DNA of 64,000 bases from Chloracidobacterium sp. (lineage in GTDB: Bacteria > Acidobacteriota > Blastocatellia > Pyrinomonadales > Pyrinomonadaceae): NCBI GenBank assembly GCA_031370285.1, contig JANMQG010000057.1, positions 33,502-97,501 on the forward strand, read 5' to 3'. The notes beneath the pieces were generated by a model that saw only the letters and a program-made list of their open reading frames with translations, searched no databases and was not told where the DNA came from. The first letter of the stretch is position 1, and every line of letters begins with the position of its first letter. Shown piece by piece: positions 12,759 to 35,971 of this stretch. Position numbers and translations under genes: made by a program.

Positions 12759-12830
12759 ATCGAATTGAAGCGAGCGAAGTCCTGGGCCATAACGACCTGG
12801 ACGAAACAGCCACCGTTGCCGGTGGCTCAT

Positions 12831-12880
12831 TGGTGGAGCAGACGAGGGTCGAACTCCTGGCCTCCGCATTGGAACGCGGC
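12831..12880 (-). repeat. partial copy of tRNA-Ala(CGC) 3' half (att-like remnant)
   Basis: tggtggagcagacgagggtcgaactcctggcctccgcattggaacgcggc matches 30114-30164 with 1 substitution and 1 indel, in the same orientation as the intact tRNA. Confidence 0.8.
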
Positions 12881-14945: not shown

Positions 14946-14957
14946 CAAACACTTCGA

Positions 14958-16124: not shown

Positions 16125-16136
16125 TTGCCCAACGAC

Positions 16137-17420: not shown

Positions 17421-17435
17421 ATAGATGGAGTCTGT

Positions 17436-19138: not shown

Positions 19139-19156
19139 GCCGGCGACAAATGAAAA

Positions 19157-19178
19157 CGGCAGGGTGCGCGCCCTGCCG
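19157..19178 (+). terminator. GC-rich hairpin after the ATPase gene (weak terminator candidate)
   Basis: cggcaggg-tgcgcg-ccctgccg. The T-run (tttt) starts only 14 nt downstream. Confidence 0.4.
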
Positions 19179-19195
19179 GAAGTGCCTGATTTTAT

Positions 19196-19241
19196 TGGTG
19201 GAGCAGAGGAGGGTCGAACTCCTGGCCTCCGCATTGCGAAC
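19196..19241 (-). repeat. partial copy of tRNA-Ala(CGC) 3' half (att-like remnant)
   Basis: 46 nt tggtggagcagaggagggtcgaactcctggcctccgcattgcgaac identical to 30114-30159, same orientation. Confidence 0.85.
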
Positions 19242-19784
19242 TGGACTACCGGCAAAAACGTAAGTATTTGCCTTTTCGAAAGTTGCGGCCACCGAAGAAA
19301 TATCGAGGTTTTCCCCTCCTTTCCCATTTCTTACCATCGCGCAGCGGTCGCTTGCTGTTATTCTTGTCCACGTATTGGCCACGCGAGAATTGTCAATCAG
19401 GGCGTTTCTAGGAATCCAACTTGGCACCTCAAAACAAGAACCAGCAAATCAGTCAAACCCACAGCCTTCCTGGTCATTAAGAACCGGGCAGTATGTCCTT
19501 TTGTCTTTGAGAGGCCCGGCTTGCCGTTTCCCGATCGTTCCAATCTACCAACAAGTAGGCGAAACCCTGGTCCTACGCCCTCGAGAGTTGTGGTTTAATC
19601 GGCAAAGTGGCGAGCTATGAGAAATAAGATGATTACTCGTATTCGGCTTACGACGTTCACTCCTTCTTTGAGAATGCATGGTAGTATTTTTCCGAAGAAA
19701 CGAATTGTTCAATTATTACCCTAGTTGACCGCGATCAACCGATACGTAGGCCCTTGAGCTGAGGAGACACCTTCCGCTAAAACC

Positions 19785-22601
19785 ATGTCTACTCCTGTCG
19801 GCAAACGTCTTGGCCGTTATGAGATCCGCTCGCTGCTCGGAGTGGGCGGCATGGGTGAAGTCTATCTTGCTCAAGACAGTCAGCTGCGCCGACCGGTGGC
19901 GCTAAAACTTCTGCCGCCGAAATTCACAATCGACGAGGAGCGGCTGCGCCGTTTTAAGCAGGAAGCTCTTGCCGCATCTGCCCTGAACCATCCGAATATT
20001 CTCACGATCCACGAGATCGGCTCAGAAGGCGACACCGATTTTATCGTTACGGAATTTATCGACGGAATCTCGCTGCGCGAGCTCATGGCAAAACAGCCGA
20101 TGTCGATCGGACAGGTACTGGACATCTGTAGCCAAATCGCTTCCGCGCTGGCTGCAGCTCATGCGGCCGGCATCGTGCATCGCGATATTAAGCCAGAGAA
20201 TGTGATGGTCCGACGCGATGGCTATGTAAAGGTGCTCGACTTTGGTCTCGCGAAGCTTACTGAGCTTCCAGGACTGCATAGTGATTCCGAGGCGGCGACG
20301 GTACAAGTGGTGAAGACTGATCCTGGAAAGGTCATGGGCACAGCCAAGTACATGTCTCCCGAACAGGCGCGCGGGTTAGAAGTTAATGAGCAAACCGACA
20401 TCTGGAGTCTGGGAGTCTTACTTTATGAACTGGCCGCAGGGCGGGTTCCTTTTGAAGGACAGACCGGCAGTGACGTTTTGGCGTCGATATTGACCGCCGA
20501 ACCCGTACCTCTGCAACGACATTCGCCCGACATTCCAACCGAACTGCAACGGATCGTGCGTAAAGCATTGCGCAAGGATCGCGAGGAGCGATATCAGTTG
20601 GCCAAGGAGTTGGCCCTGGATCTAAAGAATCTGCGCCGGGAGTTGGAGCTTAACGTCGAAATCGAGATTTCTCAGCAACCTGCTGCGCCCCCTCAGCAAG
20701 CTTTGGGCATAGGCGCCAGCCGGGCGGGCACTAGAAGTTTCCATTCGACTTCGCACACTGCGGAGGTGAATGTCCGAAAGACCAACTCGACTGCCGAATA
20801 CCTCGTAGCGGAAATCAAATCTCATCCCAAAGCCCTCGTGTTTATCCTGGGAGTTATCGGTTTAGCAGCGCTGGCGATCGTGCTGACGGTGGCTTACCGG
20901 TGGACGGCAACACAGTCCTCGTCCAGCAACGTTTCCAGTTCTTTGCGAACCATGAAGATCGCCCGCCTCACAAGCTCCGGCACTGCGGATAAAGCGGCCA
21001 TCTCGCCTGATGGCAAATACCTGGTCCATGTTGCGAGCGAGAGCGGACAGCAGAGTTTGCGCGTGCGTCAGGTCAACACCAACAGTGATGTGCAGATCAT
21101 GCCGCCATCTGACGTGCAATTTGCCGGACTGACTTTTTCGCGGGATGGCGATTTCATCTACTACGTGGCCGCTGAGAAGAACAGCGCTACGTCGAACCTC
21201 TATCAAATCCCCGCATTGGGCGGAAACGAACGAAGACTGTTCTCAAATGTGGGAAGTGCTGTCACGTTCTCGCCCGACGGACAGCAGGTGGCATTCATTC
21301 GCAACTTTCCCGACGCCGGAGAAGATGCATTGATGATCGCGAGCGCCCAGGGTGGCGGCGAACGCAAACTCACTGTGCGCAAGTTGCCAAACTTCTTTCG
21401 CCATGTCGCCTGGTCGCCGGACGGAAAAACAATCGCCTGCAGCGCCGGGAGTTTTGTTCCCAGCTACACCACCTATGTTGTTGATGTAGCATTGGAAAGC
21501 GGCAAAGAGAAACAGATCGGAACTCAAAGCTGGATGTTTATGGGCCAGCTGGCCTGGATAGGTGATGGTAGTGCCCTAATTCTTGCCGCCTCGGAACAAG
21601 AGTCGGGTAGTTTTGATGCGCAACAGATCTGGTACGTCTCTTATCCTGAAGGTGGAGCGCGACGGGTTACGAACGACTTGAATGATTACACAGGAGTTAG
21701 TCTGACGTCCGACTCGAATCGTCTGGTGACCGTTCAGTCTGAAACGAGTGCGAATGTTTGGATCGTGCCGAATGGTGACGCGAATCGGGCAACCCGAACC
21801 ACCACCGGGACGGGCAAGATCGATGGGCGCGACGGCCTCGCCTCGACCCCTGAGGGAAAGATCGTCTACGCCTCGAAGGCCAGCGGCAATTTGGATCTTT
21901 GGATGATGAATGGCGACGGCACTAATCAAAGGCAGTTGACAGAAAACTCGCGTATCAACAGTCACCCTGCGGTATCGCCCGATGGTCGTTACATTGTCTT
22001 CGCTTCGGATCGCACCGGAGCGTCAAACATCTGGCGCACCGACATAGATGGCAGCAATGCCCGACAGTTAACCAGGGGCAGCGGCGAAGACAATCCGCAA
22101 TGTTCGCCGGACGGTAAATGGGTTGTTTACACCTTGCTGGGCGCAGGGAAGCCAACCCTCTGGCGCGTCTCAATTGATGGCGGAGCTGCTCAGGAACTCA
22201 CCGATAAGTATACCGCCGCTGCGGCTCTCTCGCCCGACGGTAAATCGCTGGCCTGCCTCTATCGCGAAGAACAACCCAATTCGCCGCTCAAACTGGCAAT
22301 CTTTCCTCTCGAAGGAGGAGAGCTAACGCGTGTCTTTGATGCGCCAATTCCCGCCGAGGAAGTATCGCTCGTGCCACCGCCCCGCTGGACAACGAATGGC
22401 CGAGCGCTGACCTACGTTGTGACAAGCGCAGGTGTTTCTAATATCTGGCTTCAGCCGATCGACGGCGGGGCGCCCAGACAGCTGACCATGTTCAGCGCCG
22501 ACCGCATCTTCTCATTTGAGTGGTCGCGCGATGGCAAGCAACTCTTAGTCGCCCGCGGCATGGTGGCGAGCGACGTCGTATTGATTAGTAATTTTCGTTG
22601 A
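19785..22601 (+). CDS. Ser/Thr protein kinase with TM segment and C-terminal TolB-like beta-propeller repeats
   Basis: Kinase motifs GVGGMGEVY, HRDIKPEN, DFGLA. TM ALVFILGVIGLAALAIVLTVAY. Repeated SPDGK/SPDGR propeller blades. Confidence 0.85.
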   Translation: MSTPVGKRLGRYEIRSLLGVGGMGEVYLAQDSQLRRPVALKLLPPKFTIDEERLRRFKQEALAASALNHPNILTIHEIGSEGDTDFIVTEFIDGISLRELMAKQPMSIGQVLDICSQIASALAAAHAAGIVHRDIKPENVMVRRDGYVKVLDFGLAKLTELPGLHSDSEAATVQVVKTDPGKVMGTAKYMSPEQARGLEVNEQTDIWSLGVLLYELAAGRVPFEGQTGSDVLASILTAEPVPLQRHSPDIPTELQRIVRKALRKDREERYQLAKELALDLKNLRRELELNVEIEISQQPAAPPQQALGIGASRAGTRSFHSTSHTAEVNVRKTNSTAEYLVAEIKSHPKALVFILGVIGLAALAIVLTVAYRWTATQSSSSNVSSSLRTMKIARLTSSGTADKAAISPDGKYLVHVASESGQQSLRVRQVNTNSDVQIMPPSDVQFAGLTFSRDGDFIYYVAAEKNSATSNLYQIPALGGNERRLFSNVGSAVTFSPDGQQVAFIRNFPDAGEDALMIASAQGGGERKLTVRKLPNFFRHVAWSPDGKTIACSAGSFVPSYTTYVVDVALESGKEKQIGTQSWMFMGQLAWIGDGSALILAASEQESGSFDAQQIWYVSYPEGGARRVTNDLNDYTGVSLTSDSNRLVTVQSETSANVWIVPNGDANRATRTTTGTGKIDGRDGLASTPEGKIVYASKASGNLDLWMMNGDGTNQRQLTENSRINSHPAVSPDGRYIVFASDRTGASNIWRTDIDGSNARQLTRGSGEDNPQCSPDGKWVVYTLLGAGKPTLWRVSIDGGAAQELTDKYTAAAALSPDGKSLACLYREEQPNSPLKLAIFPLEGGELTRVFDAPIPAEEVSLVPPPRWTTNGRALTYVVTSAGVSNIWLQPIDGGAPRQLTMFSADRIFSFEWSRDGKQLLVARGMVASDVVLISNFR

Positions 22602-22620
22602 GAGGTTAACGCCGGCTAGG

Positions 22621-23229
22621 CTACTGCTTGATCACTCTTAAATTCTTCAGTGCCGACCCTACTTCTTCGTTGTTCGGCCGCTGCTTGTAGTCGGTCTCGA
22701 CTTTGATCCAGGCGACTCGTCCGTCCTCATCGATAATGTAAACCGTGGCGTGCGGAATGCCCTCAAATTTCTGCCCATTGTAAGCCGAGTCGCGAACTCC
22801 ATATGCGTCGATCACCCGATGAGCGGGGTCGGACAAGATTGGAAAGTTGACTTCTCCTTTGCCGTCGGCGGCAATCTGCTCAGCAAACTGTCTGCTTTCG
22901 GCCGGACTGTCAACGCTGACTGCATAGAAGCGAACCTGCTCTTCTTGTTTTACCAATGAACGCAGCCCGGCCAACTGCCGAGCACAGTAGGGTCACCAGT
23001 TGCCTCGATAAAAGACAAGGACTGTGGGCATGCTGCCGCGCGCGGAGGAGAGTGTAACTTTTCGATTGTTTTGATCATCGAGTGTAAAGTCGGGAGCCAT
23101 CTCACCGACCGCGACCGGCGAATTACGAGGCTTCAAGTCGCCGTCGCTCGAGGAAGATGAGTTGAGCTTCGTAGTACACGCGATGCTTCCGATGATTAGG
23201 GTGATTGCTCCCGCAACTCTGAGATTCAT
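22621..23229 (-). CDS. lipoprotein-type peroxiredoxin-like (AhpC/TSA-redoxin) protein with in-frame TGA at 22993-22995; selenoprotein candidate or pseudogene
   Basis: ORFs 22993-23229 and 22621-22974 are in one frame. The junction reads VLVFYRGNW-TGA-PYCARQLAGL, so the stop replaces the first Cys of the WCPxC redox motif. Signal/lipobox LIIGSIAC. Confidence 0.6.
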
Positions 23230-23872
23230 AAGCCTGACATCCTAACGAGTATTCTATGATGTGTGCAGCCGGGTATTCCTTCTTCGTTCGCCGGTAACAG
23301 TATTACAAAATTGCAGTTCGGGCAAAGCAAACTCTATTTCTGGCGTTTGAACGCATGAATCTCTTGGCGGGGATCCAGCCGTATCTAACGTCGGTCAAAA
23401 GAGTGGCTTCGCTGTTAGCCCTCTTTGTTCCGCTTGCCATCTTCGGGATTCGATTTCTGACGGGGAAGTTCAAAGCAAGGCTCTGACACTGCGCATCATT
23501 AAGCTTCGCACTTCGAATACTCAGAATCAAAATGTGATGATTAGAGGTGTTATTCAGGCTAATATCTTGACTATGATATTTTGCCGTTCCTAACCAAGGA
23601 GACCGTCTCACGATATGAAAGTGGTCAGAGGCGCGCGCCGAGCAAAAGCGTCGCGCCCAAAATGGATGGGCCAAACCTGGAAACGTATCGTCCAATATTG
23701 ATCTTCATTCTGATCTCCTCATTCTAAAAAAGCGTACCGTCGAGGTGCGGAACGATGGATTTACTCCAGGTCTTGCCGCCATCTTTCGACCTGGCGATGT
23801 TCCAGCCAACGCGGTTTTCCAAGGGTTTTATACGCTTATATATGGAGCTTAACGCAACCGCCGTAGATTTAT

Positions 23873-23912
23873 CTGTAGCGACGTCACAACGGCGTCACAA
23901 GAAGATGAGCGC
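23873..23912. repeat. left copy of about 40-bp direct repeat containing CGTCACAA x2
   Basis: ctgtagcgacgtcacaacggcgtcacaagaagatgagcgc versus ctgcagccgcgtcacaacggcgtcacaagagaaaatgagagc at 30030-30072. Confidence 0.7.
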
Positions 23913-23953
23913 GCAGGCAGAGTTTGAATACCCAGCCATTGAGTAGGCAACTA

Positions 23954-26900
23954 CTAACCGTGGATGCGCAGACAGGCATAGTCAACAACGATAGCGCCGT
24001 AGGACAGTGAGAGACCCTCGACTTCCGGGCGAGCAAAGCGGTAAGTCTGCTCGTGAAAGAGAGGAAGCAGCAGTCTGTCCCGCGCGATGATTTCTTCGAC
24101 CTGTCGATAGATACCATGTCTAGCCGCCGGTGATGTTTCTAATCGTCCCCGTGCTATCAGACGGTCAACTTCGGCTGAGCCACACAGTTTTCCTAAATAT
24201 CCATTCTTGGTACTCAGGATGTTTGCGAAGGTGTCGGCATCAGGATAATCCGCGCCCCAGCGCCCCAGAACTATATCGACGGAACCCTGTAACAGCGCCT
24301 CCTGCAATTCATTCATCGTCTTGTTCACGGTGCGAAATTTTATCTGGTGATCGCTGACCGAGCGCGAGATCTCACGCGCGAGAGCTGAATATTCCCCAAA
24401 AAACACCGGGTTTACGGCAGCGGTCAATTCGACTTTCACGTCTGGCTGTTCGGACGCGGATGTAGATGGAACAGGCATTCTCGGCGTGTATGCAGAATCA
24501 TGACCAAGCAGTCCAGGCGGTATGAGTCCCTGGGCTGGGACCGCGAGTCGTCCCAGGGTCTGACGCACCACGCTCGCAACGTCGATCGACCGCGCCAGCG
24601 TCTGGCGCAGGCGTTTGTCCTTCAGTGGTCCGCGTTGACAGTTGAATGCCGCGTAGTAGGTTATGAGGTTCGGGATCTCGTGATAACCGGAGGCAAACTC
24701 AGGATCGCGCCGCAGCGCCTCTGCGTCCGCAGGCAACAGATCGGCCGCCAGCGAAAATCGACCGGCGCGGAACTGCGAGAGGATGTCCGCCGGGGCGACA
24801 CCGAAATTAAAATTGAGTCGTTCAATTCTCGGATAGCCACTGCGCCAGTAGTTTCGGTTTCGCTCGAGCTCAAGGCGCACGCCTGGCTCAAACTTTAAAA
24901 CGCGAAAAGGGCCGGTTCCCACGCTACCTTCTTGCCAGCTTGCCCCAAACTTGTCGCTGCCTTCAGGGACGATGGCCGCTGCGTGATAAGAAATGAGCGC
25001 CGGGAAGAATGAGACCGGCTCGTCGAGCTCGATCGTAAACTCATTGGCTGAGTGAATGCGAAAGCCGGCAAGGTCGGAAGCCTCACCGTTCAGGAGCGTC
25101 TTAGCGCCGCGAATGGGTGCATAGAAGAAGCGTCCAAGACTTTCCGGGTTCAGTAGCAGCCTTTCAAACGAGTAGCGAACATCGCGCGCGGTCAGTTTGC
25201 GTCCATCATGGAAGCGAACATCATCCCGGAGGCGGAAACGATATCTCCTACCTCCCTGTTCAGCCGTGAAATCTGTAGCCAGCCAGGGAACGATGCGAGC
25301 GCCACCGACATCGCGAGTCAGGGTTTCGAAAATGCTCGGCAGCACCTCTGAATCTTCTACGGTGCCCGCCAGTGAGGGATCGACGTGGTTGAGTGTGCCT
25401 GTTATCGGGACTTCAATCGTGCCACCGCCGGCCCGCAGGGTGTCGGTCGCTCTGGCCGCCGATTCTAACTTGCCTATCTCGGCATAGTTAACATATGGAG
25501 CGCTGCCATAAAGGTTAAGCCCGCGAACCTTTGAGTTGGCAAGGCGATAATCGACATCGTGAAACAGCGGTAACACAATTCCTGATTCCTGCAAAAAACT
25601 TTCGTACTTCCGATACAGTGATGCCCTGACACCGGGACGGCTTTCGGTACGCGCCTCTTCGAGTATCTGATCCCCTTCGGCCGAGGAGATGTAAGTGCGG
25701 TATAGACCCACACGTGAATGGAAGAGACCATAGGTAAAGTCGTCCGGGTCATCATAGTCAGCATTCCATCTGCCGATGAACACATCTATTCCCGCACTAC
25801 TCTGGAAAGATTCCAGGTAAGAGGCCATCGTGGGTGTCGCGACCTCAACTTTCACACCGAGCTCCGACCAGATTGAGAGCAGACTTGTCAGTAGCGATTC
25901 ATATCGATCCAGAAACAAAGGATGTACGGCCGCCCTGAGCTTGATTGGATCGGTGATGCCGGCTGAGCGCAGCATGGATGAGGTCTCGTCGCGAGTGAGT
26001 GTTTGGCGCCGCCTTCCCGGATCATACCCAAGCATCCCGGGTGGAATCAGGCAGACGGCAGGCTGCGCAAACCGCCCAAGTGTTTGCCAAACCAGATCGT
26101 GCGTGCGCACTACGCCGGAGAGTGCTCGACGAAGGTCGAGATTTTGGGCGACTGAACCACTCGTCGAATTGAATATCAGGAAGTAAGTGTTCTTGCGCGG
26201 AGACTCGACCAACCCGCCGCGAAAGCGTGGGTCGCGAAGAAACTCTTCAAGATCCTGAGGCGATAGATCGCGTGCGAGGTCAATCGAGCCTGACCGCAAC
26301 CCTGAAGCTATCTCAGCAGCGCTGAGCCCGGCCCGAAATTCAACCTCATCAAGATGCGCGGAAGAACCCTTCCAGTATTTTTCATTACGCTCGAGCACGA
26401 TGCGGTCGGGCCTATACGAGGCCATGCGAAACGGACCCGTGCCAATCGGAATCGAATCGGTCTTTCCCGCAGCAACGTCGCTTAGGGTGATGCCGGTCTT
26501 GTAATCTGTCAGTAGGGCAGGATAGATGGAAAGTGGGTCAGGCAACTGTATTTCCAATTTGTAATCTGCATGGACCACAATTCCAACAAGCTCCTCGTCA
26601 TTGCTCGCCGTCCTTGCGAATTCGGCCGCGCCACGGATCGCCGCGAGTCCCGGAGGTAGCTCACGAGCTACACGAATGCTCCGCTCGAAGGAACGTTTGA
26701 CAGCCTGAGCGGTCAGGGCCTGACCATTCTGGAAGCGGACGTTTTCTCGCAGTGTAAAGAAAACCGAAGTGCCGTCCTCGGACACTTCCCATTTCTCGCA
26801 GAGAGCCGGAACTAAATTGCCTTCGAGATCTGTCGCCAATAAAGTCTCAAAGACGTTTGCTAAAATCTCCTGCTCTTCCACCAGTTCCATATTGACGGGA

Positions 26901-29629
26901 TCAATGTCGCCGAGCGGGGTGGCCAAAGCCACGACCAGTCTGCCCCCCTTTGGTATCTCTTCCTGGAGTTCGGTTTCCTTTGCAGCCGGAGCCAGGGAAA
27001 CTGCCTCTTCGAGGTAATCGTTGGCTTTCTCATACTCTCCACGAAGGTTGGCGAGGGTGGCCGCCAAAGACAGCGCATGCCTCAGGCTATCGGTGTCTCC
27101 CACCGCGTGCGCAGCGTCAATAACCTGCTGCACCAGTCGCGTTGTCTCCTCGACCTTTCTGGCTTGCCAGGCAGTCTCCGCGGCGAGCAGGAGTGCTGCG
27201 ACTGCTCGCGGCTTTTGATTTTCACGTTCCAGGATCCGTCCCGCACTCTCTGCCTCTTTTAGTGCAGCATCGACGTCTCCCGCGATGCGGTGGGCCTGAG
27301 CCAGGAGCATTCGTGCTTCACCTTCGAGAGCCGGATCACCTTCCCATTCCTCATCAAGAAACTCGAGTACTGTCTTCGCGGCGCGAGCTGCTTCTTCGGG
27401 GCTGAAAGCATCAAGCGCTGCCTTAGCCATGCGCAACCCATACTCAACTGTCTTGTCGGGGACGTCACCCTGGGAGAAGTGGTGGACCAATTGTGGGTAG
27501 ACGCGCTCGAGTCTGCCGCCGTGACGCTTCTCAACTTCCTCAGCATATTTCCGGTGCAACGACCTTCGCTTGCGGCGGGCAATTGCACCGTAAAGCACGT
27601 CGCGAACGACGCCGCTCGAAAACACCAGGCGATCACCTCTCGACTCCCGTTCTTCCTCAAGGAGTCCCTCTTCTACCAGACGGTCAATCGCGTCCTCAAC
27701 ATCCTTTGCACCGGCCAGCGCTTCCAGGTCGCGAAAGTCAAAAGCCTTGCCGATAACTGAAGCAATCGACAGAATCTCACGCAGTTCTTCAGGTAGACGC
27801 TCGATACGTTTTTCGACCGCCTGTTGAATGGTGGCCGGCAAATCGCCGGTTGAGAGATCAGTGGCAGCACCGAGACTCCAGGCTCCTGTTTGATCCTTTG
27901 CGATGCCGCCTGAATCAAGCAGCGAGCGGACCAGTTCCTTAGTGAAGAATGGGTTGCCCTCAGTTCCTTCATAAAGTTTTTCGACGAGGCTGTCGGCTAG
28001 TTTAGGTCCGCCTATCAGTGTTTCGAGAAACAGGCGATGTTCCGCGGGTGAGAAAGGTCCCAGCGGGATTGCGGAAAAACGGCGGTCCCCGCGGAAACTT
28101 TCAAGCATTCGGAGCAGCGGATGGTTACGGCTGTCTACTTCACTTGACCGGTACGTCCCAACAATCAGCGTGGGAGTTGGTCCTAATCGACGAACGATGT
28201 ATTGCAATGCTTCAATGGATATCTCTGCCGCATGAAGATCTTCGAGGAAAAGAATCAGCGGCTTTCCCGCTGCCAGGCGTGTGAGCGTTCGCGCCAGTAG
28301 TTCAAAAACCTGGGTGCGGTTTTCGGGTCCCTGTGATCCGCCAAGCGATCCTCCAGACTGGGCCAACTTGGAGTCACCAGTCGCGGCGGCGCGAATCTCG
28401 CTGATCTCTGTAAGCATGGGAAACAACGACACGAGATCGGGGGCAACATCCGACAGCTCTAACATGTTGTCGGGAGAGCTGGCGCTATCCTTCAGCCGGA
28501 AGTATTCCTGAATTGCTTCACAGAACCCTTGATACGGGAAGGCGCCATCCTGCTCAATCGATCGGCCATGAAGGACGAGAAGCTTGCGGGCTTTGGCCAG
28601 GTTTTCTATCTCGTCGAGCAATCGTGTCTTACCGACGCCGGGCTCGCCTGACACCACGACAAATTGGCACTCACCGCTAATGGCGGCATTGAGTCGCTTC
28701 TGCAACTCAGCCTGCTCCTTCTCTCGGCCGATGAAGGGAGAGAGCGCCACACGCGGCATCATCAACGTCTTGGTCATTACCACTGATTTGCCGAGGTCGC
28801 TCTGGTGCAATCGGGTTTGACAGCGCCTTAAGGAATCAGCAACTTCACTTGCTCGCTGTGGTCGCTTTCCAGGCTCCTTGGCTATGCAGGCGAGTATGGC
28901 TTCCTCGAGGTCCTCATTAATCTCCGCACCCAATGAGCGCGGCGACTGGGGAATCTCATGAACTATTCGATAGAGTATCGATTGAAGTTCGCCCGAGAAT
29001 GGCGGTTCGCCAGTAAGACACTCGTAGAGAACAGTGCCGAGAGAATAAATGTCCGAGCGATGGTCCACTGCGTTAGCCGCCACTTGCTCCGGACTCATGT
29101 ATGAGAGAGTTCCTGCAATAGTGCCGGTCTTGGTAATGCGACTCTCTGTGGCGCCTCTGGCCAGACCAAAGTCCATGATCCGCACCCTGACACGAGCACC
29201 ATCCTCCCGCGTCGCCATGATGTTCTCCGGTTTTATGTCCCGGTGCGTTACGCCGCGTGAATGGCTGTATTCGAGTGCTTCGGAAACCTGGATGCCAATG
29301 TCGATAACTTCGCCCAGCGTCAGCGCGCCTTCGCGCTCGAACCAGCGCAGGTTCGTTCCCTGGAGAACGGGCATGACAAAAAAGAGCGATCCTTCGTGTT
29401 TGCCAAAGTCGAAGATTGGCACGATTGCTGGATGGTCCATCTGGGCCACCAGCTGCGCTTCGCGTTGGAAGCGTTGTTCCGTTTCGGGGTTCAGCAGTGT
29501 TGGAGGAATAAGCTTGACGGCTACTTCACGGTTCAATAGCGGGTCATGCGCGCGGTAGACCACGCCCATTCCGCCGCGGCCCAACTCCGACTTGATTTCG
29601 TATCGGTTAGAAAGCGTTTGACCAATCAT
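23954..29629 (-). CDS. multidomain Ser/Thr kinase - AAA/STAND ATPase - TPR-like region - two tandem family-5 solute-binding (peptide/nickel SBP) domains
   Basis: Start taken at ATG 29629 (GGAGGG RBS); the ORF opens at TTG 29656. Kinase GRGGMGVVY/HRDIKPEN/DFGLA. Walker A SGEPGVGKTRLLDE. Two SBP5-like modules each with DP...FETL...VRFxxG..LTA..V..SFER. No TM or signal peptide seen. Confidence 0.85.
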   Translation of the reverse strand: MIGQTLSNRYEIKSELGRGGMGVVYRAHDPLLNREVAVKLIPPTLLNPETEQRFQREAQLVAQMDHPAIVPIFDFGKHEGSLFFVMPVLQGTNLRWFEREGALTLGEVIDIGIQVSEALEYSHSRGVTHRDIKPENIMATREDGARVRVRIMDFGLARGATESRITKTGTIAGTLSYMSPEQVAANAVDHRSDIYSLGTVLYECLTGEPPFSGELQSILYRIVHEIPQSPRSLGAEINEDLEEAILACIAKEPGKRPQRASEVADSLRRCQTRLHQSDLGKSVVMTKTLMMPRVALSPFIGREKEQAELQKRLNAAISGECQFVVVSGEPGVGKTRLLDEIENLAKARKLLVLHGRSIEQDGAFPYQGFCEAIQEYFRLKDSASSPDNMLELSDVAPDLVSLFPMLTEISEIRAAATGDSKLAQSGGSLGGSQGPENRTQVFELLARTLTRLAAGKPLILFLEDLHAAEISIEALQYIVRRLGPTPTLIVGTYRSSEVDSRNHPLLRMLESFRGDRRFSAIPLGPFSPAEHRLFLETLIGGPKLADSLVEKLYEGTEGNPFFTKELVRSLLDSGGIAKDQTGAWSLGAATDLSTGDLPATIQQAVEKRIERLPEELREILSIASVIGKAFDFRDLEALAGAKDVEDAIDRLVEEGLLEEERESRGDRLVFSSGVVRDVLYGAIARRKRRSLHRKYAEEVEKRHGGRLERVYPQLVHHFSQGDVPDKTVEYGLRMAKAALDAFSPEEAARAAKTVLEFLDEEWEGDPALEGEARMLLAQAHRIAGDVDAALKEAESAGRILERENQKPRAVAALLLAAETAWQARKVEETTRLVQQVIDAAHAVGDTDSLRHALSLAATLANLRGEYEKANDYLEEAVSLAPAAKETELQEEIPKGGRLVVALATPLGDIDPVNMELVEEQEILANVFETLLATDLEGNLVPALCEKWEVSEDGTSVFFTLRENVRFQNGQALTAQAVKRSFERSIRVARELPPGLAAIRGAAEFARTASNDEELVGIVVHADYKLEIQLPDPLSIYPALLTDYKTGITLSDVAAGKTDSIPIGTGPFRMASYRPDRIVLERNEKYWKGSSAHLDEVEFRAGLSAAEIASGLRSGSIDLARDLSPQDLEEFLRDPRFRGGLVESPRKNTYFLIFNSTSGSVAQNLDLRRALSGVVRTHDLVWQTLGRFAQPAVCLIPPGMLGYDPGRRRQTLTRDETSSMLRSAGITDPIKLRAAVHPLFLDRYESLLTSLLSIWSELGVKVEVATPTMASYLESFQSSAGIDVFIGRWNADYDDPDDFTYGLFHSRVGLYRTYISSAEGDQILEEARTESRPGVRASLYRKYESFLQESGIVLPLFHDVDYRLANSKVRGLNLYGSAPYVNYAEIGKLESAARATDTLRAGGGTIEVPITGTLNHVDPSLAGTVEDSEVLPSIFETLTRDVGGARIVPWLATDFTAEQGGRRYRFRLRDDVRFHDGRKLTARDVRYSFERLLLNPESLGRFFYAPIRGAKTLLNGEASDLAGFRIHSANEFTIELDEPVSFFPALISYHAAAIVPEGSDKFGASWQEGSVGTGPFRVLKFEPGVRLELERNRNYWRSGYPRIERLNFNFGVAPADILSQFRAGRFSLAADLLPADAEALRRDPEFASGYHEIPNLITYYAAFNCQRGPLKDKRLRQTLARSIDVASVVRQTLGRLAVPAQGLIPPGLLGHDSAYTPRMPVPSTSASEQPDVKVELTAAVNPVFFGEYSALAREISRSVSDHQIKFRTVNKTMNELQEALLQGSVDIVLGRWGADYPDADTFANILSTKNGYLGKLCGSAEVDRLIARGRLETSPAARHGIYRQVEEIIARDRLLLPLFHEQTYRFARPEVEGLSLSYGAIVVDYACLRIHG

Positions 29630-30029
29630 CTTCCCTCCATGAAGAAACAAAGTCAAAAAGGTGTGAGAGGAACTCCTTCGTTAGGATGAGGAAAGAGAAC
29701 CCTTGTTGAGGGCGCTCTGTACTACTGAGCCAAGCGGTGACGGAAGTTGTAATGATAGGGCAGACCCTTACGGATTGTATAGAGGTGCGCACGAACGAGC
29801 GGGGACTAAGGTTGGCAAGTCAGGTGATGATGTTCGCGCGGCGCTTAAGACGAGGTAAGCGCTCAACCGTACTTCCCAATGCTGGTCAGGAGTCTCAAAT
29901 CCTAAGTCGAATCGCCCACGATTTGAATCTCTGACCTCCGCGTTGCACTTGGCCTCAATCACCTTTCGAACACTCTTAAGCCAAACAAAATCACATATTA
30001 TTCGAACGTCTGACTTCCGCGATCCGGCT

Positions 30030-30072
30030 CTGCAGCCGCGTCACAACGGCGTCACAAGAGAAAATGAGAGCT
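30030..30072. repeat. right copy of about 40-bp direct repeat containing CGTCACAA x2
   Basis: See 23873-23912. Lies 42 bp from the 3' end of tRNA-Ala. Confidence 0.7.
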
Positions 30073-30113
30073 AGACGAACTGCTGCTGGAAATCTTTGAA
30101 AATCGAAGGGTTT

Positions 30114-30189
30114 TGGTGGAGCAGAGGAGGGTCGAACTCCTGGCCTCCGCATTGCGAACGCGGCGCTCTGCCAACTGAGCTACTGCCCC
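30114..30189 (-). tRNA. tRNA-Ala (anticodon CGC), CCA encoded
   Basis: Reverse complement folds as a cloverleaf: GGGGCAG-TA-GCTC-AGTTGGCA-GAGC-G-CCGCG-TTCGCAA-TGCGG-AGGCC-AGGAG-TTCGACC-CTCCT-CTGCTCC-A-CCA. Carries the G3:U70 alanine identity pair. Confidence 0.93.
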
Positions 30190-30206
30190 ACGCCACGCTA
30201 GAATAC

Positions 30207-30235
30207 AGTTTCGAGTTTCGAGTTTCAAGTTTGAG
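30207..30235. repeat. orphan GTTTCRA heptamer array (single arm)
   Basis: agtttcgagtttcgagtttcaagtttgag beside the tRNA 5' end. No inverted partner found nearby. Confidence 0.5.
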
Positions 30236-30243
30236 ACCCGTCG

Positions 30244-30510
30244 CTACTGCGGAGTCAGGTCGAGTGCTTCGATCACTCTCGTGTACGGTATCTGAGCGGC
30301 ATCGTTTACCTCTTTCACTAACTCCGGATTGGCCGCTTCGAACAGACACATACAATGCGCCTCACCGGGCACGAAGGTGGTGCGGATGTAGCGCACGGCC
30401 TTACCCTCGGCAGTGAACTTGCCACTTGTTTCGATCGCTGCCTTCTGCGCAGCTGCCAGTTGCTCCATCTCAATACCGGGAAGATCACGTTCAACCATGT
30501 AGACGGGCAT
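30244..30510 (-). CDS. DUF4242-like small protein
   Basis: 88 aa. MPVYMVERDLPG...HCMCLFEAANPE pattern as I remember for DUF4242. Confidence 0.7.
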   Translation of the reverse strand: MPVYMVERDLPGIEMEQLAAAQKAAIETSGKFTAEGKAVRYIRTTFVPGEAHCMCLFEAANPELVKEVNDAAQIPYTRVIEALDLTPQ

Positions 30511-30659
30511 AAAAATCTCCTTGTTGAGTTAAAGAATCTGCAGAGCGGATCCACAAATTCAAATTACAGACAAAAACAGAAAACCTAAGTGCTGTGATGT
30601 CCAAGCGTCCTTCTGTTGCTTGACTGTCTGAGTCAGTGAAGTCTATGTAAGCTGCGACA

Positions 30660-31868
30660 TCAGATCAAGCTCTTAGCCGCCTGGTCCAGTGCTTCGTCGA
30701 GGTTTTCAACATTCTTTCCGCCGCCTTGCGCCAGGTCAGGCTTGCCGCCGCCGCGACCTTCGAGCAGCTCGCAGGCGTGGCGCATTAGAACATTCATGTC
30801 CCCCGGCGCATCCGCGGCTTTCGCGAAGACCAGACGCGCTGCTTCCTTATCGCGCGAGCCGAGTAGGGCAATCGTATTTGGATGGGCAATCAACGCCACC
30901 GCCAAACGCTTCAGCGACTCCGCATCGCGATTGTCAAAAACATGGTCAACGACGCGAACACCGAGCGCACTTGGCGAGGCAGCGGCCAGCAGTTCATCTG
31001 CTTCAACACGGGCGGCGATTTCTTCAAGACTGCGGACGCGCCGGTGCAGTTCTTTATTCTCTTCAACCATTCGCGCCGTCAGCTTTGCCGCATCGTCGCG
31101 GCTGGCGCTGAAGAGAGTTGCGACCGCGCGCGCAGTTTTGTTTGCGCGACGATAGTCGGCCAGCGCGCGGGTACCGGCGGCAAACTCAATCCGCGTTAGT
31201 CCTTTGGCGCGCTCCCAGGTCCGCACGGCAATCATTCCGACTTCGCCGGTGCGGTAGGCGTGGGTACCGCCGCAAGGAGTCAGATCGAAGCCTTCGATTT
31301 CAATCAGCCGTAATTCGCCAGCGCGCGAAGGATCCTTTCGCAAGGGAAGCTGCGCCGCTTCATCTGCCGTGGCGCGCTTGATGTTTACCTGGCGATCTTC
31401 CCAGATGACATTGTTTGCCAACTCCACGGCCCGTTGGATTAGTTCATTCGTGGGGTTGGTTAGTTCAACATCGATCTCGCACACTTCGTGCAGCACCCGA
31501 AAGCCGCGCGTCGGCGCGTTGAAGAGAGTTACGAAAGCCTGCGAAAGGATGTGTTGGCCGGTGTGTTGCTGAATATGATCGAGACGCCGGGACCAATCGA
31601 TTCTTCCTTTGACGGTTGCGCCTACCTCCGGCGCGCGGCCCTGAACGACGTGCAGTACTCCGTTGTCCTCGTCGTCGATACACTCGAGCACTCGTTCGCC
31701 GTTTAGCGTTCCCGTGTCGCTCGGCTGCCCGCCACCGGTTGGATAAAACGCGGTGCGATCGAGCGTGACAGCGCTCCAACCACTGACGCGGTCAGTCTTG
31801 TCGGTGACGAGCGCTTCAAACTCGATAAGATGAGAGTCAGAATAGTAGAGACGTTCGGTTGGAGGCAT
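30660..31868 (-). CDS. alaX: alanyl-tRNA editing protein, AlaX-L type (AlaRS editing domain plus DHHA1-like C-terminus)
   Basis: Start at ATG 31868 (MPPTERLYYSD). Zinc/editing motifs HTGQHILSQA and CGGTH. C-terminal GGGKPDLAQGGG typical of the AlaRS C-terminal/DHHA1 region. Confidence 0.85.
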   Translation of the reverse strand: MPPTERLYYSDSHLIEFEALVTDKTDRVSGWSAVTLDRTAFYPTGGGQPSDTGTLNGERVLECIDDEDNGVLHVVQGRAPEVGATVKGRIDWSRRLDHIQQHTGQHILSQAFVTLFNAPTRGFRVLHEVCEIDVELTNPTNELIQRAVELANNVIWEDRQVNIKRATADEAAQLPLRKDPSRAGELRLIEIEGFDLTPCGGTHAYRTGEVGMIAVRTWERAKGLTRIEFAAGTRALADYRRANKTARAVATLFSASRDDAAKLTARMVEENKELHRRVRSLEEIAARVEADELLAAASPSALGVRVVDHVFDNRDAESLKRLAVALIAHPNTIALLGSRDKEAARLVFAKAADAPGDMNVLMRHACELLEGRGGGKPDLAQGGGKNVENLDEALDQAAKSLI

Positions 31869-31941
31869 GGTTGAATTGATTAATAGTGCAACTCGTAGAA
31901 CCTTGCAAGTGAACAAGTCGATCTGAGTTGTCTCAGGATCG

Positions 31942-32007
31942 GGAAGGGTGGTTTACCCACGCAGTTGATTCCGGAAAAGCCAAGACCGGGGGTAAACCCA
32001 CCCTTCC
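31942..32007. repeat. 17-18-bp inverted repeat in divergent alaX / M61-peptidase intergenic region
   Basis: ggaagggtggtttaccc ... gggtaaacccacccttcc, one extra base, about 31-nt loop. Confidence 0.5.
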
Positions 32008-32165
32008 TTGACCTCAAGACTGCCTGCCTTGAGAGAGATCACTTGCTTGAATGCTCCCATTACTAAGACCGCAGATACTTTGACAGGCTTTCCTGAAAAC
32101 CAACATAATCCGCCGTGCTTCCAAACATCTGCGCCTTTGGCCGCTTCTAGCAGAAACCAGATCTT

Positions 32166-34091
32166 ATGAGCCGCATTTTCCGAACACTTCTCGTATGCCG
32201 CCTCGCGCTGCTTCTATCATTGCTCGCTTCCATGAGCGCGATCGCAGCCGCTCAGCAGGACCAGCAGCTGCGCTCGATAACTTACCGGCTTGGGATGTCG
32301 CGGCCGGTTTCTCACCTGTTCGAAGTGACCATTGAGGTCGAGCTGGAGAAAGGTGCGGCGGCGAAAACAATCGACTTCCAGATGCCCAAGTGGTCGCCGG
32401 GCCGTTATGCCGTTTTCGACTTCGCCAAGAACGTGCAGGAGTTTAGCCCTGCTCATTTCGATTGCAAGCGCCACGGAGAGACAGGTTCTGCTATTGACTG
32501 CGCCGTTACTCCATTGCCTGTCACCCGCGTTGACGATCAAACCTGGCGCGTGGCAACGATGAATACGCACAGCTTGACAATTCGCTACAAAGTCTTCGGC
32601 AACGACCTCTCGGGCACTTTCTCTCAACTTGATTCTCGTCACGCAAACTTCAATGGCGGCTCCCTCTTTATGTACGTCGTCAACCACAAGCCTGATCCGG
32701 TGAAGCTGATAATCGATCCGCCCGCAGGCTGGCGGATCGTCAACGGTCGCACTGAGCAAAGCAATCAGCCCGAATGGCAGTTTCCTAATTACGACGTCAT
32801 GATCGATACGCCAACTGAAATCGCGCCAGACTGGACTGACGACCAGTTTCAGGTCGATGGCAAACGCTATCACGTCGTCATTCATTCGTTTGGCGATGAA
32901 GGTGGAAAGCGCGATGACCTGGTTCGTGACATCGAGAAGATTGTGCGTGCGGAGACCGCAATGTGGGGCCCGCCGGAGTTTGACTCTTACACGTTCCTGA
33001 TCCACTTCGCTGCCGACGACCACTCCGGCGACGGCATGGAACATCTCACCTCGACGCAAATCATCGAACCGGGCGCGCTCGGGGAAGATGGTGTTTACGG
33101 CGACACTCTCGATACGGTGGCTCACGAGTTTTTCCACGTCTGGAATGTGAAACGACTCCGTCCGTTGGAACTCGGGCCCTGGGACTTCACGCGTCCTTTA
33201 AGTACGCGTGGTCTGTGGATCGCGGAGGGAATAACCAACTACTACGGCCATCTAATGAGACGGCGGGCCCAGTTGTGGGACGACACCGCGTTGTTCCGTC
33301 GTGAAAGCCAAACCATTACTGGTATCGAAAACGCTCCCGGTAGCCATTTGATGAGCGCGGAAGACTCTTCGCTTTCCGCACCTTTCCTTGATGATGCGCC
33401 GCATGCGCAACAAACGAATCTGGAGAACGCTTCTGTCAGCTATTATCCGAAAGGCGAGTTGATCGGCTTGGTTCTCGATCTAATGATCCGCGGGAAAACC
33501 AACGGCAAAGCTTCGCTTGATGACGTCATGCGCCGCATGTATGAAGAGTTTTATCTCCAGAGTCCGAACGCGAGTTACTACCTGCGCGGGCGCGGCTACA
33601 CGACCGAAGACTTCGAGCGCGTCGCTTCTGAAGTTGCAGGGTTTGACCTGCAAAGTTTTTTCCGCCTGCACGTTCGCGGCGTGGCAGTGCTCCCGTATGA
33701 CGAGGCGTTCGCTTTCCTTGGACTATCCGTAATTCGCGAACAGGCCCGCCAGCCTTTTGATGCGGGTATTGGAATCGACTGGCAAGAGAAGGGGGCTCTT
33801 ACAATCGGAGTGGTGCAGTCGCACTCGCCTGCGGAGGATGCCGGCTTGCAGGAGGGCGACGAAATCGTTTCGCTCGGCAAGAAAAATATCTCGCGTGAAA
33901 CCTTTCTGGTGTCGCTCGCACGTTACAAGCAAGGCGATCGCGTCCCGGTTACCGTTAAGCGCGACCGACGAACGATTCAGACTACGCTCGTGCTCGGTGC
34001 TCCGGAACGGTTCGAGTATCGAATCGAGGAAAGAAAAGACGCAACGCCGCAACAGAAAGCCCTGCGCGCTGCCTGGTTGAAGGGCTCGTGA
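32166..34091 (+). CDS. M61 family (glycyl aminopeptidase-like) metallopeptidase with C-terminal PDZ domain, secreted
   Basis: Signal peptide LLLSLLASMSAIAAAQQ. Zinc motif HEFFHVWN. PDZ-like GIDW..GALTIGVVQSHSPAEDAGLQEGDEIVSLG. Confidence 0.85.
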   Translation: MSRIFRTLLVCRLALLLSLLASMSAIAAAQQDQQLRSITYRLGMSRPVSHLFEVTIEVELEKGAAAKTIDFQMPKWSPGRYAVFDFAKNVQEFSPAHFDCKRHGETGSAIDCAVTPLPVTRVDDQTWRVATMNTHSLTIRYKVFGNDLSGTFSQLDSRHANFNGGSLFMYVVNHKPDPVKLIIDPPAGWRIVNGRTEQSNQPEWQFPNYDVMIDTPTEIAPDWTDDQFQVDGKRYHVVIHSFGDEGGKRDDLVRDIEKIVRAETAMWGPPEFDSYTFLIHFAADDHSGDGMEHLTSTQIIEPGALGEDGVYGDTLDTVAHEFFHVWNVKRLRPLELGPWDFTRPLSTRGLWIAEGITNYYGHLMRRRAQLWDDTALFRRESQTITGIENAPGSHLMSAEDSSLSAPFLDDAPHAQQTNLENASVSYYPKGELIGLVLDLMIRGKTNGKASLDDVMRRMYEEFYLQSPNASYYLRGRGYTTEDFERVASEVAGFDLQSFFRLHVRGVAVLPYDEAFAFLGLSVIREQARQPFDAGIGIDWQEKGALTIGVVQSHSPAEDAGLQEGDEIVSLGKKNISRETFLVSLARYKQGDRVPVTVKRDRRTIQTTLVLGAPERFEYRIEERKDATPQQKALRAAWLKGS

Positions 34092-34163
34092 GGTTTCGCA
34101 GACAGCAAACTCATAAGAGGAAAGACTATCAGCTCCACACCACCCATCGCTGCCACGCCGCAA

Positions 34164-35195
34164 TTGAGGTTGCTCGGTGTCAGATACTTCCTGCTCCTGT
34201 GGCTGTTGTTCTTTGCAATCTGCTTTGGCCTTGGTTACCCGACGCTCCAACGCTATGACCCACGAAGGACAGAAGGGATGAGCGACACGCCGAAGTATTA
34301 CGCCATCACAACCGGCGCAGATACTTCTGGATTTAAGGAAATGTTCCGCGGTCGCCTCCTGGTTCCTTACGTTGCCCGGCCCTTCTACTGGTTTGCCCAG
34401 AAATACCTGCAAAGTTGGAACGCCGGCTTCTTCGGTCTGCTGATGGCCAATGCGCTTTTCTGTGCCACGACCGCGTGCCTTATCGTGACCATTGGTAACA
34501 GGGTGCTCAACGATCTTGGTGCAGCTTTGTTTGGAGCAGCGCTCTACTTGCTCAGCTTTACCGTTCCCAACCTGCAACTTGCGGGGTTGATCGATAGCGG
34601 CGAAGCCTGTTTCCTCGCCGCCGTAACCTGGAGTCTACTCACCGGCAAGTGGTATTTGCTGCCACTCTGGGGATTGTTCGGGGCGCTGGCCAAGGAGACG
34701 TTTGTTCCGTTCTCCTGTGTCTTTGCGTTGACTTGGTGGCTAGCGGAGCGGCGCCAAGTCGGAACCGATGCGTCGAGATTAAGATGGATTGTCGCGCTGG
34801 GAGTTGTGGGATTGGCGACGGTGATGGCCGTTCACTCCAGGGTGTCCGGGCAATTCAAATGGCCGTGGGATATTGCGGGACAGGCAAGAGCGCCGGTTAA
34901 CTTCTTCGTCGCGTTGTGGCACTGTCTTACCGAACGGAGTTTTTGGTACGTGTTTGGCTGGCTGATACCCTTGGGAGTTTGGCGGCTAAAGTTTTTTCCT
35001 GGGCCATGGCTTGCGGCAGCGATTGCCACATCGATATTTGCAGTTATGTTGGGAGCGTATAGTAATGCGGGCGGAACCGTGGGCCGCGCTACTTTCAACA
35101 TCATCGGTCCGCTGCTGAGTCTCTCAGTTGCGTTATTGATTGCCAGACCGCAGGCAAACGTACCGAAGAAGTTTCTCGCGGATGAACGCGGCTAG
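34164..35195 (+). CDS. polytopic integral membrane protein, unknown function
   Basis: 343 aa, TTG start, at least 8 hydrophobic segments. No motif recognised. Confidence 0.55.
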   Translation: MRLLGVRYFLLLWLLFFAICFGLGYPTLQRYDPRRTEGMSDTPKYYAITTGADTSGFKEMFRGRLLVPYVARPFYWFAQKYLQSWNAGFFGLLMANALFCATTACLIVTIGNRVLNDLGAALFGAALYLLSFTVPNLQLAGLIDSGEACFLAAVTWSLLTGKWYLLPLWGLFGALAKETFVPFSCVFALTWWLAERRQVGTDASRLRWIVALGVVGLATVMAVHSRVSGQFKWPWDIAGQARAPVNFFVALWHCLTERSFWYVFGWLIPLGVWRLKFFPGPWLAAAIATSIFAVMLGAYSNAGGTVGRATFNIIGPLLSLSVALLIARPQANVPKKFLADERG

Positions 35196-35219
35196 CGGCG
35201 ACCCATTTCAAATTTTGCA

Positions 35220-35969: not shown

Positions 35970-35971
35970 AA

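Follow-up and report, generated by a model that had tools for sequence, protein, structure and literature searches.

A mobile kinase-STAND protein of Acidobacteriota with two cytoplasmic family-5 solute-binding modules, a putative small-molecule-gated receptor kinase

The subject of this work is a gene in a 64,000-nt stretch of contig JANMQG010000057.1 from Chloracidobacterium sp. (the window; all positions refer to it). The gene (23954..29629, minus strand) encodes a protein of 1891 amino acids (aa), here called the giant kinase, in which a Hanks-type Ser/Thr kinase, a STAND switch, a tetratricopeptide repeat (TPR) region and two complete modules of the solute-binding protein (SBP) family 5 (SBP5) follow one another in a single chain. 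We propose that the giant kinase is a small-molecule-gated, mobile and self-contained intracellular receptor kinase, and we put the probability of this reading at roughly 0.55. An earlier reading made from the sequence alone had suggested a ligand-gated, peptide-sensing switch. The part of this claim that concerns a STAND kinase with SBP5 sensors is best supported, by predicted intact domains, by conserved residues and by relatives in which the same chassis carries other outputs; the peptide part is a lead only.

Results

Gene model and domain order

The region 23954-29629 (minus strand) is one uninterrupted open reading frame (ORF), with the stop codon at 23954-23956. The ATG at position 29629 lies 6 nt downstream of a GGAGG sequence, and orthologues of 1880-1891 aa share this start position. 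It is a sensible start, and a longer frame starting with TTG is unnecessary. With Pfam, a Pkinase domain was found at aa 10-258 (E 6e-51; 173.7 bits, cut-off 31.7), an AAA_16 domain at aa 298-490 (E 4e-21; 76.6 bits, cut-off 32.6) and SBP_bac_5 in two stretches of the C-terminal half (combined E 7e-122, 407.5 bits). Matches to TPR_MalT/TPR_12 at aa 744-881 were weak and below the cut-off. According to NCBIfam the N-terminus is PknB-like, aa 297-888 resemble the NOD (nucleotide-binding oligomerization domain) and TPR of the TIGR03903 kinase/cyclase fusions (E 1e-86), and the C-terminal modules resemble binding proteins of the NikA/Opp5A and OppA/DppA/SapA types. The domain order kinase, NTPase, TPR and twice SBP5 had been claimed before and is borne out in every detail, as ORF, Pfam and NCBIfam agree. 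The SBP5 assignment of the C-terminal half stands, and the motifs quoted for it are present: GEPGVGKT at aa 328-335, and FETL, VRFxxG and SFER in both modules.

The giant kinase missed the equivalog cut-off of TIGR03903 (291.7 vs 705.75 bits, the alignment being confined to aa 297-888), and all its scores for NCBIfam SBP equivalogs were far under their cut-offs. By the features tested the protein belongs to the Hanks kinase, STAND (MalT branch) and SBP5 fold families, and it falls outside TIGR03903, any NCBIfam transporter-SBP equivalog and any catalogued Avs family.

No transmembrane segment, signal peptide or lipobox was found in the giant kinase, the highest 19-residue Kyte-Doolittle mean being 1.21, in line with what the sequence-only reading had stated. 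Since the kinase is N-terminal and the chain does not cross the membrane, the whole chain including both SBP5 modules must, judged from its sequence, be cytoplasmic.

This location bears on the name that the protein carries in the databases. More than 120 clusters of orthologues, full-length and 72-98% identical, came from a word-based search, and most of them are named 'ABC transporter substrate-binding protein'. The name and the strong SBP_bac_5 score would fit an exported or transporter-associated binding protein. However, the chain has none of the export features listed above, its N-terminus is an ATP-dependent kinase, and it stays far from the SBP equivalogs; permease and ATPase genes are neither adjacent in the window nor recurrent across the 78 loci that were compared. 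The database label is wrong, and a role as transporter component has next to no probability.

Two complete SBP5 modules at the sensor position

SBP5 module 1 comprises aa 886-1389 (25463..26974, minus strand) and module 2 aa 1402-1891 (23957..25426, minus strand). Between the two modules the identity is about 33%. Module 1 is NikA/Opp5A- and DppA-like in both NCBIfam and PDB searches, and the best PDB matches of module 2 are 8upi, MppA and OppA. An AlphaFold2 (AF2) model of aa 886-1891, computed from a 49-sequence alignment, has a mean predicted local distance difference test score (pLDDT) of 84.7 and consists of two full bilobed cluster-C SBP folds joined by a 12-residue disordered linker. 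In a Foldseek search with this two-module model the target template modelling scores (TM-scores), which are not split by module, reached 0.91 for 5u4o/Bacillus SBP5, 0.88 for YliB/GsiB and 0.81 for liganded MppA and DppA, and lay overall at 0.7-0.9 for solved SBPs. Further matches were OppA, NikA and DppE bound to murein tripeptide. Structure prediction had been called for to see whether both binding clefts are intact; both modules came out as complete cluster-C folds.

Conservation was assessed in an alignment of the giant kinase with 66 full-length homologues of other species (35-97% identical), that is in 67 sequences. The Trp and Asp of the motif W-x-x-D-Y-x-D-P-D are present in both modules in all 67 (W1288 and D1291 in RWNADYDDPD of module 1, W1791 and D1794 in RWGADYPDAD of module 2), and the motif around D1291 and D1794 aligns with that of MppA. 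Following the work on OppA, DppA and MppA, the conserved Asp of W-x-x-D-Y is the putative anchor of the ligand's alpha-amino group. The SBP5 fold is a binder of small ligands, and the ligands of the closest solved relatives are peptides, murein tripeptide, glutathione or metal chelates. Because of these ligands and because the Asp is conserved, a peptide-like ligand with a free amino group is a lead. Each module is thus a full-length member of the OppA/DppA/MppA/NikA group of cluster-C SBPs and keeps its motif; unlike these proteins, the modules lack an export signal and a partner transporter and are joined as a tandem pair to a signalling protein.

The binding of peptide backbones by OppA-type proteins shows little sequence preference. 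This property opens a different explanation, namely that the SBP5 modules are substrate-recruiting or scaffolding domains which hold peptide or protein termini for the kinase or mediate assembly. Tandem modules would suit a bivalent capture, and the related TIGR03903 proteins belong to peptide-modification (thiazole/oxazole-modified microcin, TOMM) systems. On the other hand, neither the window nor the recurrent neighbours of the 78 loci contain peptide-precursor or modification genes, and relatives with outputs other than a kinase retain the SBP5 module. Moreover, the modules stand C-terminal to NOD and arm, which is the sensor position in STAND proteins (PMC4381067). We consider a scaffolding role very unlikely.

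Kinase and STAND switch

The Hanks-type kinase domain (aa 10-258; 28856..29602, minus strand) matches PknB structures with E 1.6e-55. Its catalytic Lys, K39 in VAVK, is kept in 65 of the 67 sequences, the remaining two having gaps there, and the Asp residues of HRD (D131) and DFG (D153) are invariant. In the activation loop T166, T168, T170 and T174 are either invariant or replaced by Ser only. From the PknB match and these residues the kinase domain is predicted to be PknB-like and intact.

The NOD begins with a P-loop nucleotide-binding domain (NBD) corresponding to AAA_16 (aa 298-490), which is followed by a helical domain (HD), a winged-helix domain (WHD) and an arm (aa 491-700); together they are encoded at 27530..28738 on the minus strand. 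The Walker A Lys K334 is found in 67/67 sequences; E463 of Walker B, adjoined by D464 as a further Walker B residue, is found in 63/67, and the other four carry Asp. The TPR region (aa 701-885; 26975..27529, minus strand) links the NOD to SBP5 module 1; besides the weak Pfam matches its assignment relies on the AF2 model. In the model of aa 285-890 (pLDDT 82.3, helices 401-594 of the model above 90) the NBD, the helical and the winged-helix domain precede about six TPR hairpins. The best Foldseek matches of this model were the TPR-STAND protein PH0952 (6mfv, E 4e-14), Avs3 in second place and MalT (8bob; target TM-score of 8bob_C 0.58); 8dgc and Avs5 are also among the matches. According to the model the NOD is an intact STAND switch of the MalT/PH0952 type, with an NBD-HD-WHD core, an arm and a repeat region.

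In the order of its first ~890 aa the giant kinase is like PknK of Mycobacterium tuberculosis and other kinase-AAA_16-TPR STAND kinases of the MalT branch, including TIGR03903. Paralogues of ~1170-1250 aa from its own family align to aa 3-884 at 32-35% identity. Unlike PknK and the TIGR03903 proteins, the giant kinase has about 1000 additional residues, the two SBP5 domains, at the sensor position, and unlike genes for PknK-type kinases its gene is mobile and patchy. MalT of E. coli and PH0952 of P. horikoshii (PDB 6MFV) share the NBD-HD-WHD-arm-TPR fold and, by analogy, presumably the same logic of an ADP-locked monomer, inducer-dependent opening and multimerisation. In the giant kinase, unlike in MalT, the output is a kinase and not a DNA-binding domain, and a flytrap domain after the TPR, in place of the superhelical sensor of MalT and PH0952, is presumed to hold the inducer site. 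A published precedent for a family-5 binding domain as intracellular sensor of a regulator is given by SgrR/DsvR (helix-turn-helix plus SBP_bac_5). These proteins have no NOD, no kinase, a single SBP module and a different output, and the SgrR model matches the giant kinase only weakly and partially (E 1.5e-12).

The gene lies in a tRNA-flanked insert

The 5' end of the gene faces a tRNA-Ala(CGC) gene (30114..30189, minus strand; found with ARAGORN and Rfam) at a distance of 484 bp, the 3' end of the tRNA pointing towards the gene. A repeat search showed three copies of this tRNA 3' end in the same orientation and no others in the genome: the one within the tRNA gene (30113-30159), a 47/47-nt direct copy at 19195..19241 and an older, 89%-identical copy at 12830..12876 (both minus strand). 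The pattern records two integrations into the tRNA gene, one after the other. The insert 19242-30113 (10.9 kb) contains the giant gene and is bounded at its far end by the perfect copy; the insert 12877-19194, bounded by the older copy, holds a BcrAD/HgdB-like (Bcr/Hgd-like) reductase or dehydratase cluster. The region 30660-45315 is syntenic with the same-genus genome G075, which lacks the gene, and synteny halts at the tRNA. The placement of the gene on an island next to a tRNA, proposed from the sequence alone, was thus confirmed. No PF00589 (integrase) match was found on the contig of the window.

A reading without an island had also been considered on account of the flat G+C content (~0.55) and the housekeeping-looking neighbours. 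It was overturned by the tRNA repeats, the synteny break and an outlying sequence identity (see below). Logan contigs of four metagenomes were compared with 12000-31900 and yielded, as candidates for empty-site or excision joints, only 12827>30113 and 12827>19195, which carry extra letters and whose sides, of 22 nt, fall within the repeated piece of the tRNA; they were uninformative.

A co-cargo gene of the same insert (19785..22601, plus strand) encodes a 938-aa Ser/Thr kinase with a PD40 beta-propeller (Pfam). Also within the insert, downstream of the giant gene, an AhpC/Redoxin-like ORF (22621-23229) contains the C-terminal domain part only (profile positions 56-123). A 31-nt repeat brackets only the giant gene, with copy 1 (23872..23902, plus strand) 52 nt past its stop codon and copy 2 (30029..30059, plus strand) 55 nt from the tRNA 3' end; 21 nt of it, CGTCACAACGGCGTCACAAGA, are exact. 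Possible recombination sites were considered in these repeats; orthologous loci were found to lack them, and the genome has a third copy at an unrelated position. The 21-nt core CGTCACAACGGCGTCACAAGA is itself an 8-mer repeated at 11-nt spacing, and downstream of each of its three copies, within ~10 nt, an ATG opens an ORF (11 and 13 codons for the copies in the window). An element of ~95 nt is common to ~23810-23905 and an unrelated contig (C163:~2240-2345).

Targeting of tRNA genes by integration is common in this genome (G000). Copies of 29-45 nt of the 3' ends of other tRNAs were found there for Leu-TAA (three copies), Met, Glu-CTC, Ser-TGA, Val and Pro, on contigs C102, C118, C149, C164/C208, C85 and C191, and genes or fragments of tyrosine recombinases adjoin tRNA-Ser (C164) and tRNA-Met (C118).

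The gene has moved between genomes

In five genomes a tRNA gene (Ala-CGC, Ala-GGC or Cys) lies on one side of the gene and a copy of that tRNA's 3' end, of 22/23 to 47 nt, on the other; the copies are perfect in four of the five, and in three the gene is the sole long gene of the insert. In the same-genus genome G024 (locus L047) it lies 195 bp from tRNA-Ala(GGC), with a 44/44 copy of the 3' end 400 bp past its stop codon, and this 6.25-kb insert contains no other ORF of at least 100 aa. A 6.2-kb insert with a 44/44 repeat is found at tRNA-Cys in L059 and a 6.9-kb insert with a 47/47 repeat at tRNA-Ala-GGC in L077; G106/L050 has a 22/23 repeat of tRNA-Cys. DNA homology to G024 (84.5%) spans exactly the gene and 115 bp upstream (ending at 29744) and nothing else. 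Among the tRNA-linked loci ~170 bp upstream of the ATG (29630..29800, minus strand), presumably promoter and 5' untranslated region, is the only conserved non-coding DNA that accompanies the gene.

Other orthologues abut tRNA-Glu, tRNA-Ser, tRNA-Gly or tRNA-Lys and have no detectable repeat. In the Thermoanaerobaculia clade no tRNA adjoining the gene was seen; in L113 a tRNA-Ser is located ~0.6 kb downstream, again with no repeat. Only in L069, L074 and L070 are integrase-like ORFs or their remnants located close to the gene, one of the remnants adjoining tRNA-Cys. No gene family was found in more than 8 of the 78 loci, and the recurrent neighbours are all ordinary: kinase-PD40, DUF4440, oxidoreductase, ABC ATPase, permease and SpoIIE. 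Kinase-PD40/Tricorn-like beta-propeller genes are present in the flanks of 8/78 loci and in triplicate in one relative (L001:15650-24321); this co-occurrence is probably chance, because each genome has dozens of kinase genes.

The identity of the gene to its counterpart in genus g6 is 89%, whereas the 85 reciprocal best hits of the two genomes reach 84.4% at most and 65.5% in the median. In comparison with a same-genus genome the gene ranks in the top 5%. The tRNA repeats, the lack of a conserved neighbour, the patchy presence and the identity outlier together lead to the conclusion that this is an accessory gene which recently moved between genera.

Elements flanked by attachment (att) sites but devoid of an integrase are known at tRNA genes as cis-mobilisable elements and tandem island arrays. 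The inserts described here are like them in their tRNA 3'-end repeats (from the anticodon loop to the 3' end; 44-47 nt for all but one of the five), in the tandem accretion at tRNA-Ala(CGC) and in the integrase remnants at a few related loci. They are unlike them in measuring only 6.2-6.9 kb with essentially one gene, and in using at least three tRNA targets for the same cargo.

Family distribution

Where the >120 orthologue clusters mentioned above carry an organism label, it is Pyrinomonadaceae, Blastocatellia, Acidobacteriota or 'bacterium'. An exhaustive profile-free search with aa 701-1891 added more than 60 further representatives of 50%-identity clusters, with 1,820-1,950 aa and 34-57% identity. 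A scan of one genome per species gave 291 encoding stretches, and among the best 80 of these all but three are labelled as an Acidobacteriota lineage or as bare 'bacterium'; the three exceptions (Nitrospiraceae or Clostridia) look mis-binned. In an even sample of the phylum ~6% of 401 species carry the gene, some of them twice, and these carriers belong to at least 12 families. In its own family it was found in 3 of the 121 species sampled; two of the four own-genus species in that sample lack it, as does a third in the phylum scan; G075 and G116 are same-genus genomes without it. That the architecture might be common and already characterised, as the sequence-only reading had allowed, is correct as to its frequency within Acidobacteriota; as to its characterisation, the literature search found no paper on a kinase-STAND-SBP5 architecture. 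The family is large and unstudied and has so far been met in Acidobacteriota only. It combines a PknK/MalT-type STAND switch with cytoplasmic SBP5 modules in the manner of SgrR, and the new finding concerns the mobility of the gene.

This distribution can be set against the explanation that the giant kinase is an ordinary PknK/MalT-type regulator, which senses an internal nutrient or cell-wall-turnover metabolite (e.g. imported oligopeptides or murein tripeptide) and whose insert location is incidental. The closest relatives are indeed signalling STANDs (TIGR03903 fusions, PH0952, MalT), PknK regulates growth (PMC4381067), and every domain is under strong purifying selection. Acidobacteria have dozens of sensor kinases per genome, and cytoplasmic SBP5 sensors serve chemotaxis and transcription in the same lineages. 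However, a core regulator would be expected to be broadly distributed and syntenic, whereas this gene, so rare in its own family, has a different context each time. Its inter-genus similarity exceeds that of any of the 85 sampled orthologues, and it moves without a candidate regulon, transporter or substrate gene. We consider an ordinary regulator improbable.

Architectural variants

P0209 has one SBP5 module in place of two. Variants of family f36 with 2150-2220 aa (L141:1557-8009, L142:229-6891 and L143:181-6651) possess two tandem Pkinase domains followed by AAA_16-TPR-2xSBP5; these ~2150-aa proteins had been considered as carriers of SIR2, which was rejected when the second kinase domain was found instead. 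The more distant variants P0152 and P0248 do carry an additional N-terminal SIR2_2 domain (Pfam) with GAGxS, TTNYD and HxHG-like motifs, and in P0248 the kinase is degenerate. In PADLOC this SIR2_2 domain matches the models of Lamassu LmuA (4e-22) and ThsA; by sequence it has no significant match in the PDB. In P0236 a DNA-binding output, Trans_reg_C, is placed on the AAA_16-SBP5 chassis.

Head-to-tail pairs of paralogues of the kinase-STAND-2xSBP5 gene were found in Thermoanaerobaculia and related genomes: L093 (5913-11585 and 13871-19537), L097 (236-5902 and 5913-11579), L117 (272-5905 and 5916-11489) and G494:C2:86555-95800. In one metagenome-assembled genome only aa 1026-1890 remain (L080:3319-5946; 86% identical), abutting an unrelated gene, and this copy either has lost its 5' part or is an assembly chimera.

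Soluble chemoreceptors with MCPsignal and a C-terminal SBP_bac_5 domain and lacking an N-terminal transmembrane segment (L019:1906-4971 in G096 and L020:4311-7445 in G001) form, judging from domain content, a further class of cytoplasmic SBP5 sensors. They are widespread in the own family as many ORFs of ~1030-1130 aa and are ~32% identical to module 2.

The relatives with SIR2_2 bear on the alternative that had been suggested from the sequence alone, an Avs-like immune sensor. In its strict form the giant kinase would be an Avs/NLR-like anti-phage receptor: the SBP5 pair would recognise a protein of the phage or a molecule that the phage induces, and the abortive-infection effector would be the kinase or, in relatives, the SIR2 NADase. 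Like Avs3 and the SIR2-STAND Avs5, the giant kinase combines N-terminal effector, STAND NOD and C-terminal sensor in one polypeptide from one gene. The tRNA-flanked inserts with horizontal transfer and patchy presence are in favour of this alternative as well, and so are the varying N-terminal module (SIR2_2 with its LmuA and ThsA matches, once beside a degenerate kinase), the tandem paralogues, the truncated remnant in one genome and the rank of Avs3 among the fold matches of the NOD. The kinase domain resembles PD-T4-6, MADS6 and PglW, but so does any Hanks kinase.

Against it stands that the giant kinase, unlike Avs, matches no catalogued defence NOD: PADLOC gave generic kinase-domain matches for the whole protein, and for aa 285-890 matches at the P-loop level only (E at least 1e-4). 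There are no defence genes among the recurrent neighbours of the 78 loci, a systematic defence-gene scan of all flanks not having been made. The conservation of the sensor modules (0.79-0.82) is only slightly lower than that of kinase and NOD (0.88-0.90), and therefore the sensor is not hypervariable. Its fold binds small ligands and is not a TPR-type sensor for protein recognition, and the chassis also carries a DNA-binding output. Finally, a whole-protein search of phage and plasmid collections returned separate kinase or SBP matches only and no full architecture. For the Avs-like alternative, then, the island site, the horizontal transfer, the patchiness and the SIR2 relatives held up, and the links to known defence did not; we regard it as possible but unlikely.

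Discussion

We return to the giant kinase as a small-molecule-gated receptor kinase. In the scheme established for STAND proteins a monomer locked with ADP is opened by an inducer at the C-terminal sensor, the nucleotide is exchanged, and multimerisation activates the output (PMC4381067, PMC6468293). By analogy with MalT and PH0952, the NOD of the resting giant kinase would hold ADP and be locked by the arm and TPR together with the SBP modules. A small cytosolic ligand, probably peptide-like with a free amino group, would close one or both flytraps; the closure would release the lock and allow exchange of ADP for ATP and oligomerisation. The kinase domains gathered in the oligomer would trans-phosphorylate their activation loops (T166-T174), and the activated kinase would then phosphorylate host proteins. 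As conserved activation-loop threonines are combined with a PknB-like output, proximity-driven trans-autophosphorylation would be the natural activation step.

As the gene travels by itself, with its ~170 bp of upstream DNA and without partner genes, the targets of its output must exist in every recipient. For this reason a portable sentinel, responding to a small molecule that signals danger, competition or stress, seems to us more likely than the regulator of a dedicated regulon; no other part of the proposal is less certain than this role. Pointers to such a sentinel or conflict role are the single-gene mobility without a co-transferred regulon, the patchiness, the variable N-terminal effector including a defence-type SIR2, the tandem duplication and the occasional decay. 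Pointers to ordinary signalling are the MalT/PH0952-type NOD, the DNA-binding output on the NOD-SBP5 chassis and the SBP5 chemotaxis receptors.

Several points weigh against the proposal. The fold matches listed share only 17-23% identity with the modules, and the peptide part leans on this remote similarity and on one motif, the role of which is that described for OppA, DppA and MppA. In distant family members the sequences show that the putative anchor Asp is sometimes replaced in one module; therefore the ligands may differ between clades, or one module may have turned structural. The inter-domain geometry is uncertain (predicted TM-score, pTM, 0.50-0.55), and therefore the route from SBP closure to the NOD is a guess. 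Mobility by itself does not prove a sentinel role, and the ligand and kinase substrates proposed here are candidates.

A more far-reaching idea, which we put forward tentatively and regard as unlikely, is that the flytrap pair is the sensor of a previously unrecognised class of NLR-like danger receptors. A cytosolic peptide-type molecule would trigger oligomerisation of the STAND switch and a kinase or SIR2 NADase response, and the receptors would spread in soil Acidobacteriota as single genes on 6-7-kb integrase-less inserts that are mobilised in trans into several tRNA genes. Candidate triggers would be muropeptides set free when the cell wall is attacked, murein tripeptide among them, or else a peptide signal or antibiotic that has been imported. 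If a muropeptide were the trigger, the giant kinase would parallel animal NOD1/NOD2 in function, and bacteria would have their own counterpart of this kind of sensing.

Within Acidobacteriota, which are dominant in soils but poorly understood, the family is large, and its members are systematically annotated, wrongly, as part of a transporter. SBP domains can readily be expressed on their own and screened for ligands, and therefore the family offers an experimentally tractable handle. The single-gene tRNA inserts raise the questions of how so minimal an element is mobilised and why the same gene is repeatedly the cargo; a defence or stress module that is portable would be expected to show such repeated carriage. 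The sensors usually reported for STAND and NLR proteins are of the repeat type (TPR, WD40, leucine-rich repeats). Complete transporter-type binding proteins at the sensor position would widen the known modes of sensing the cytosol.

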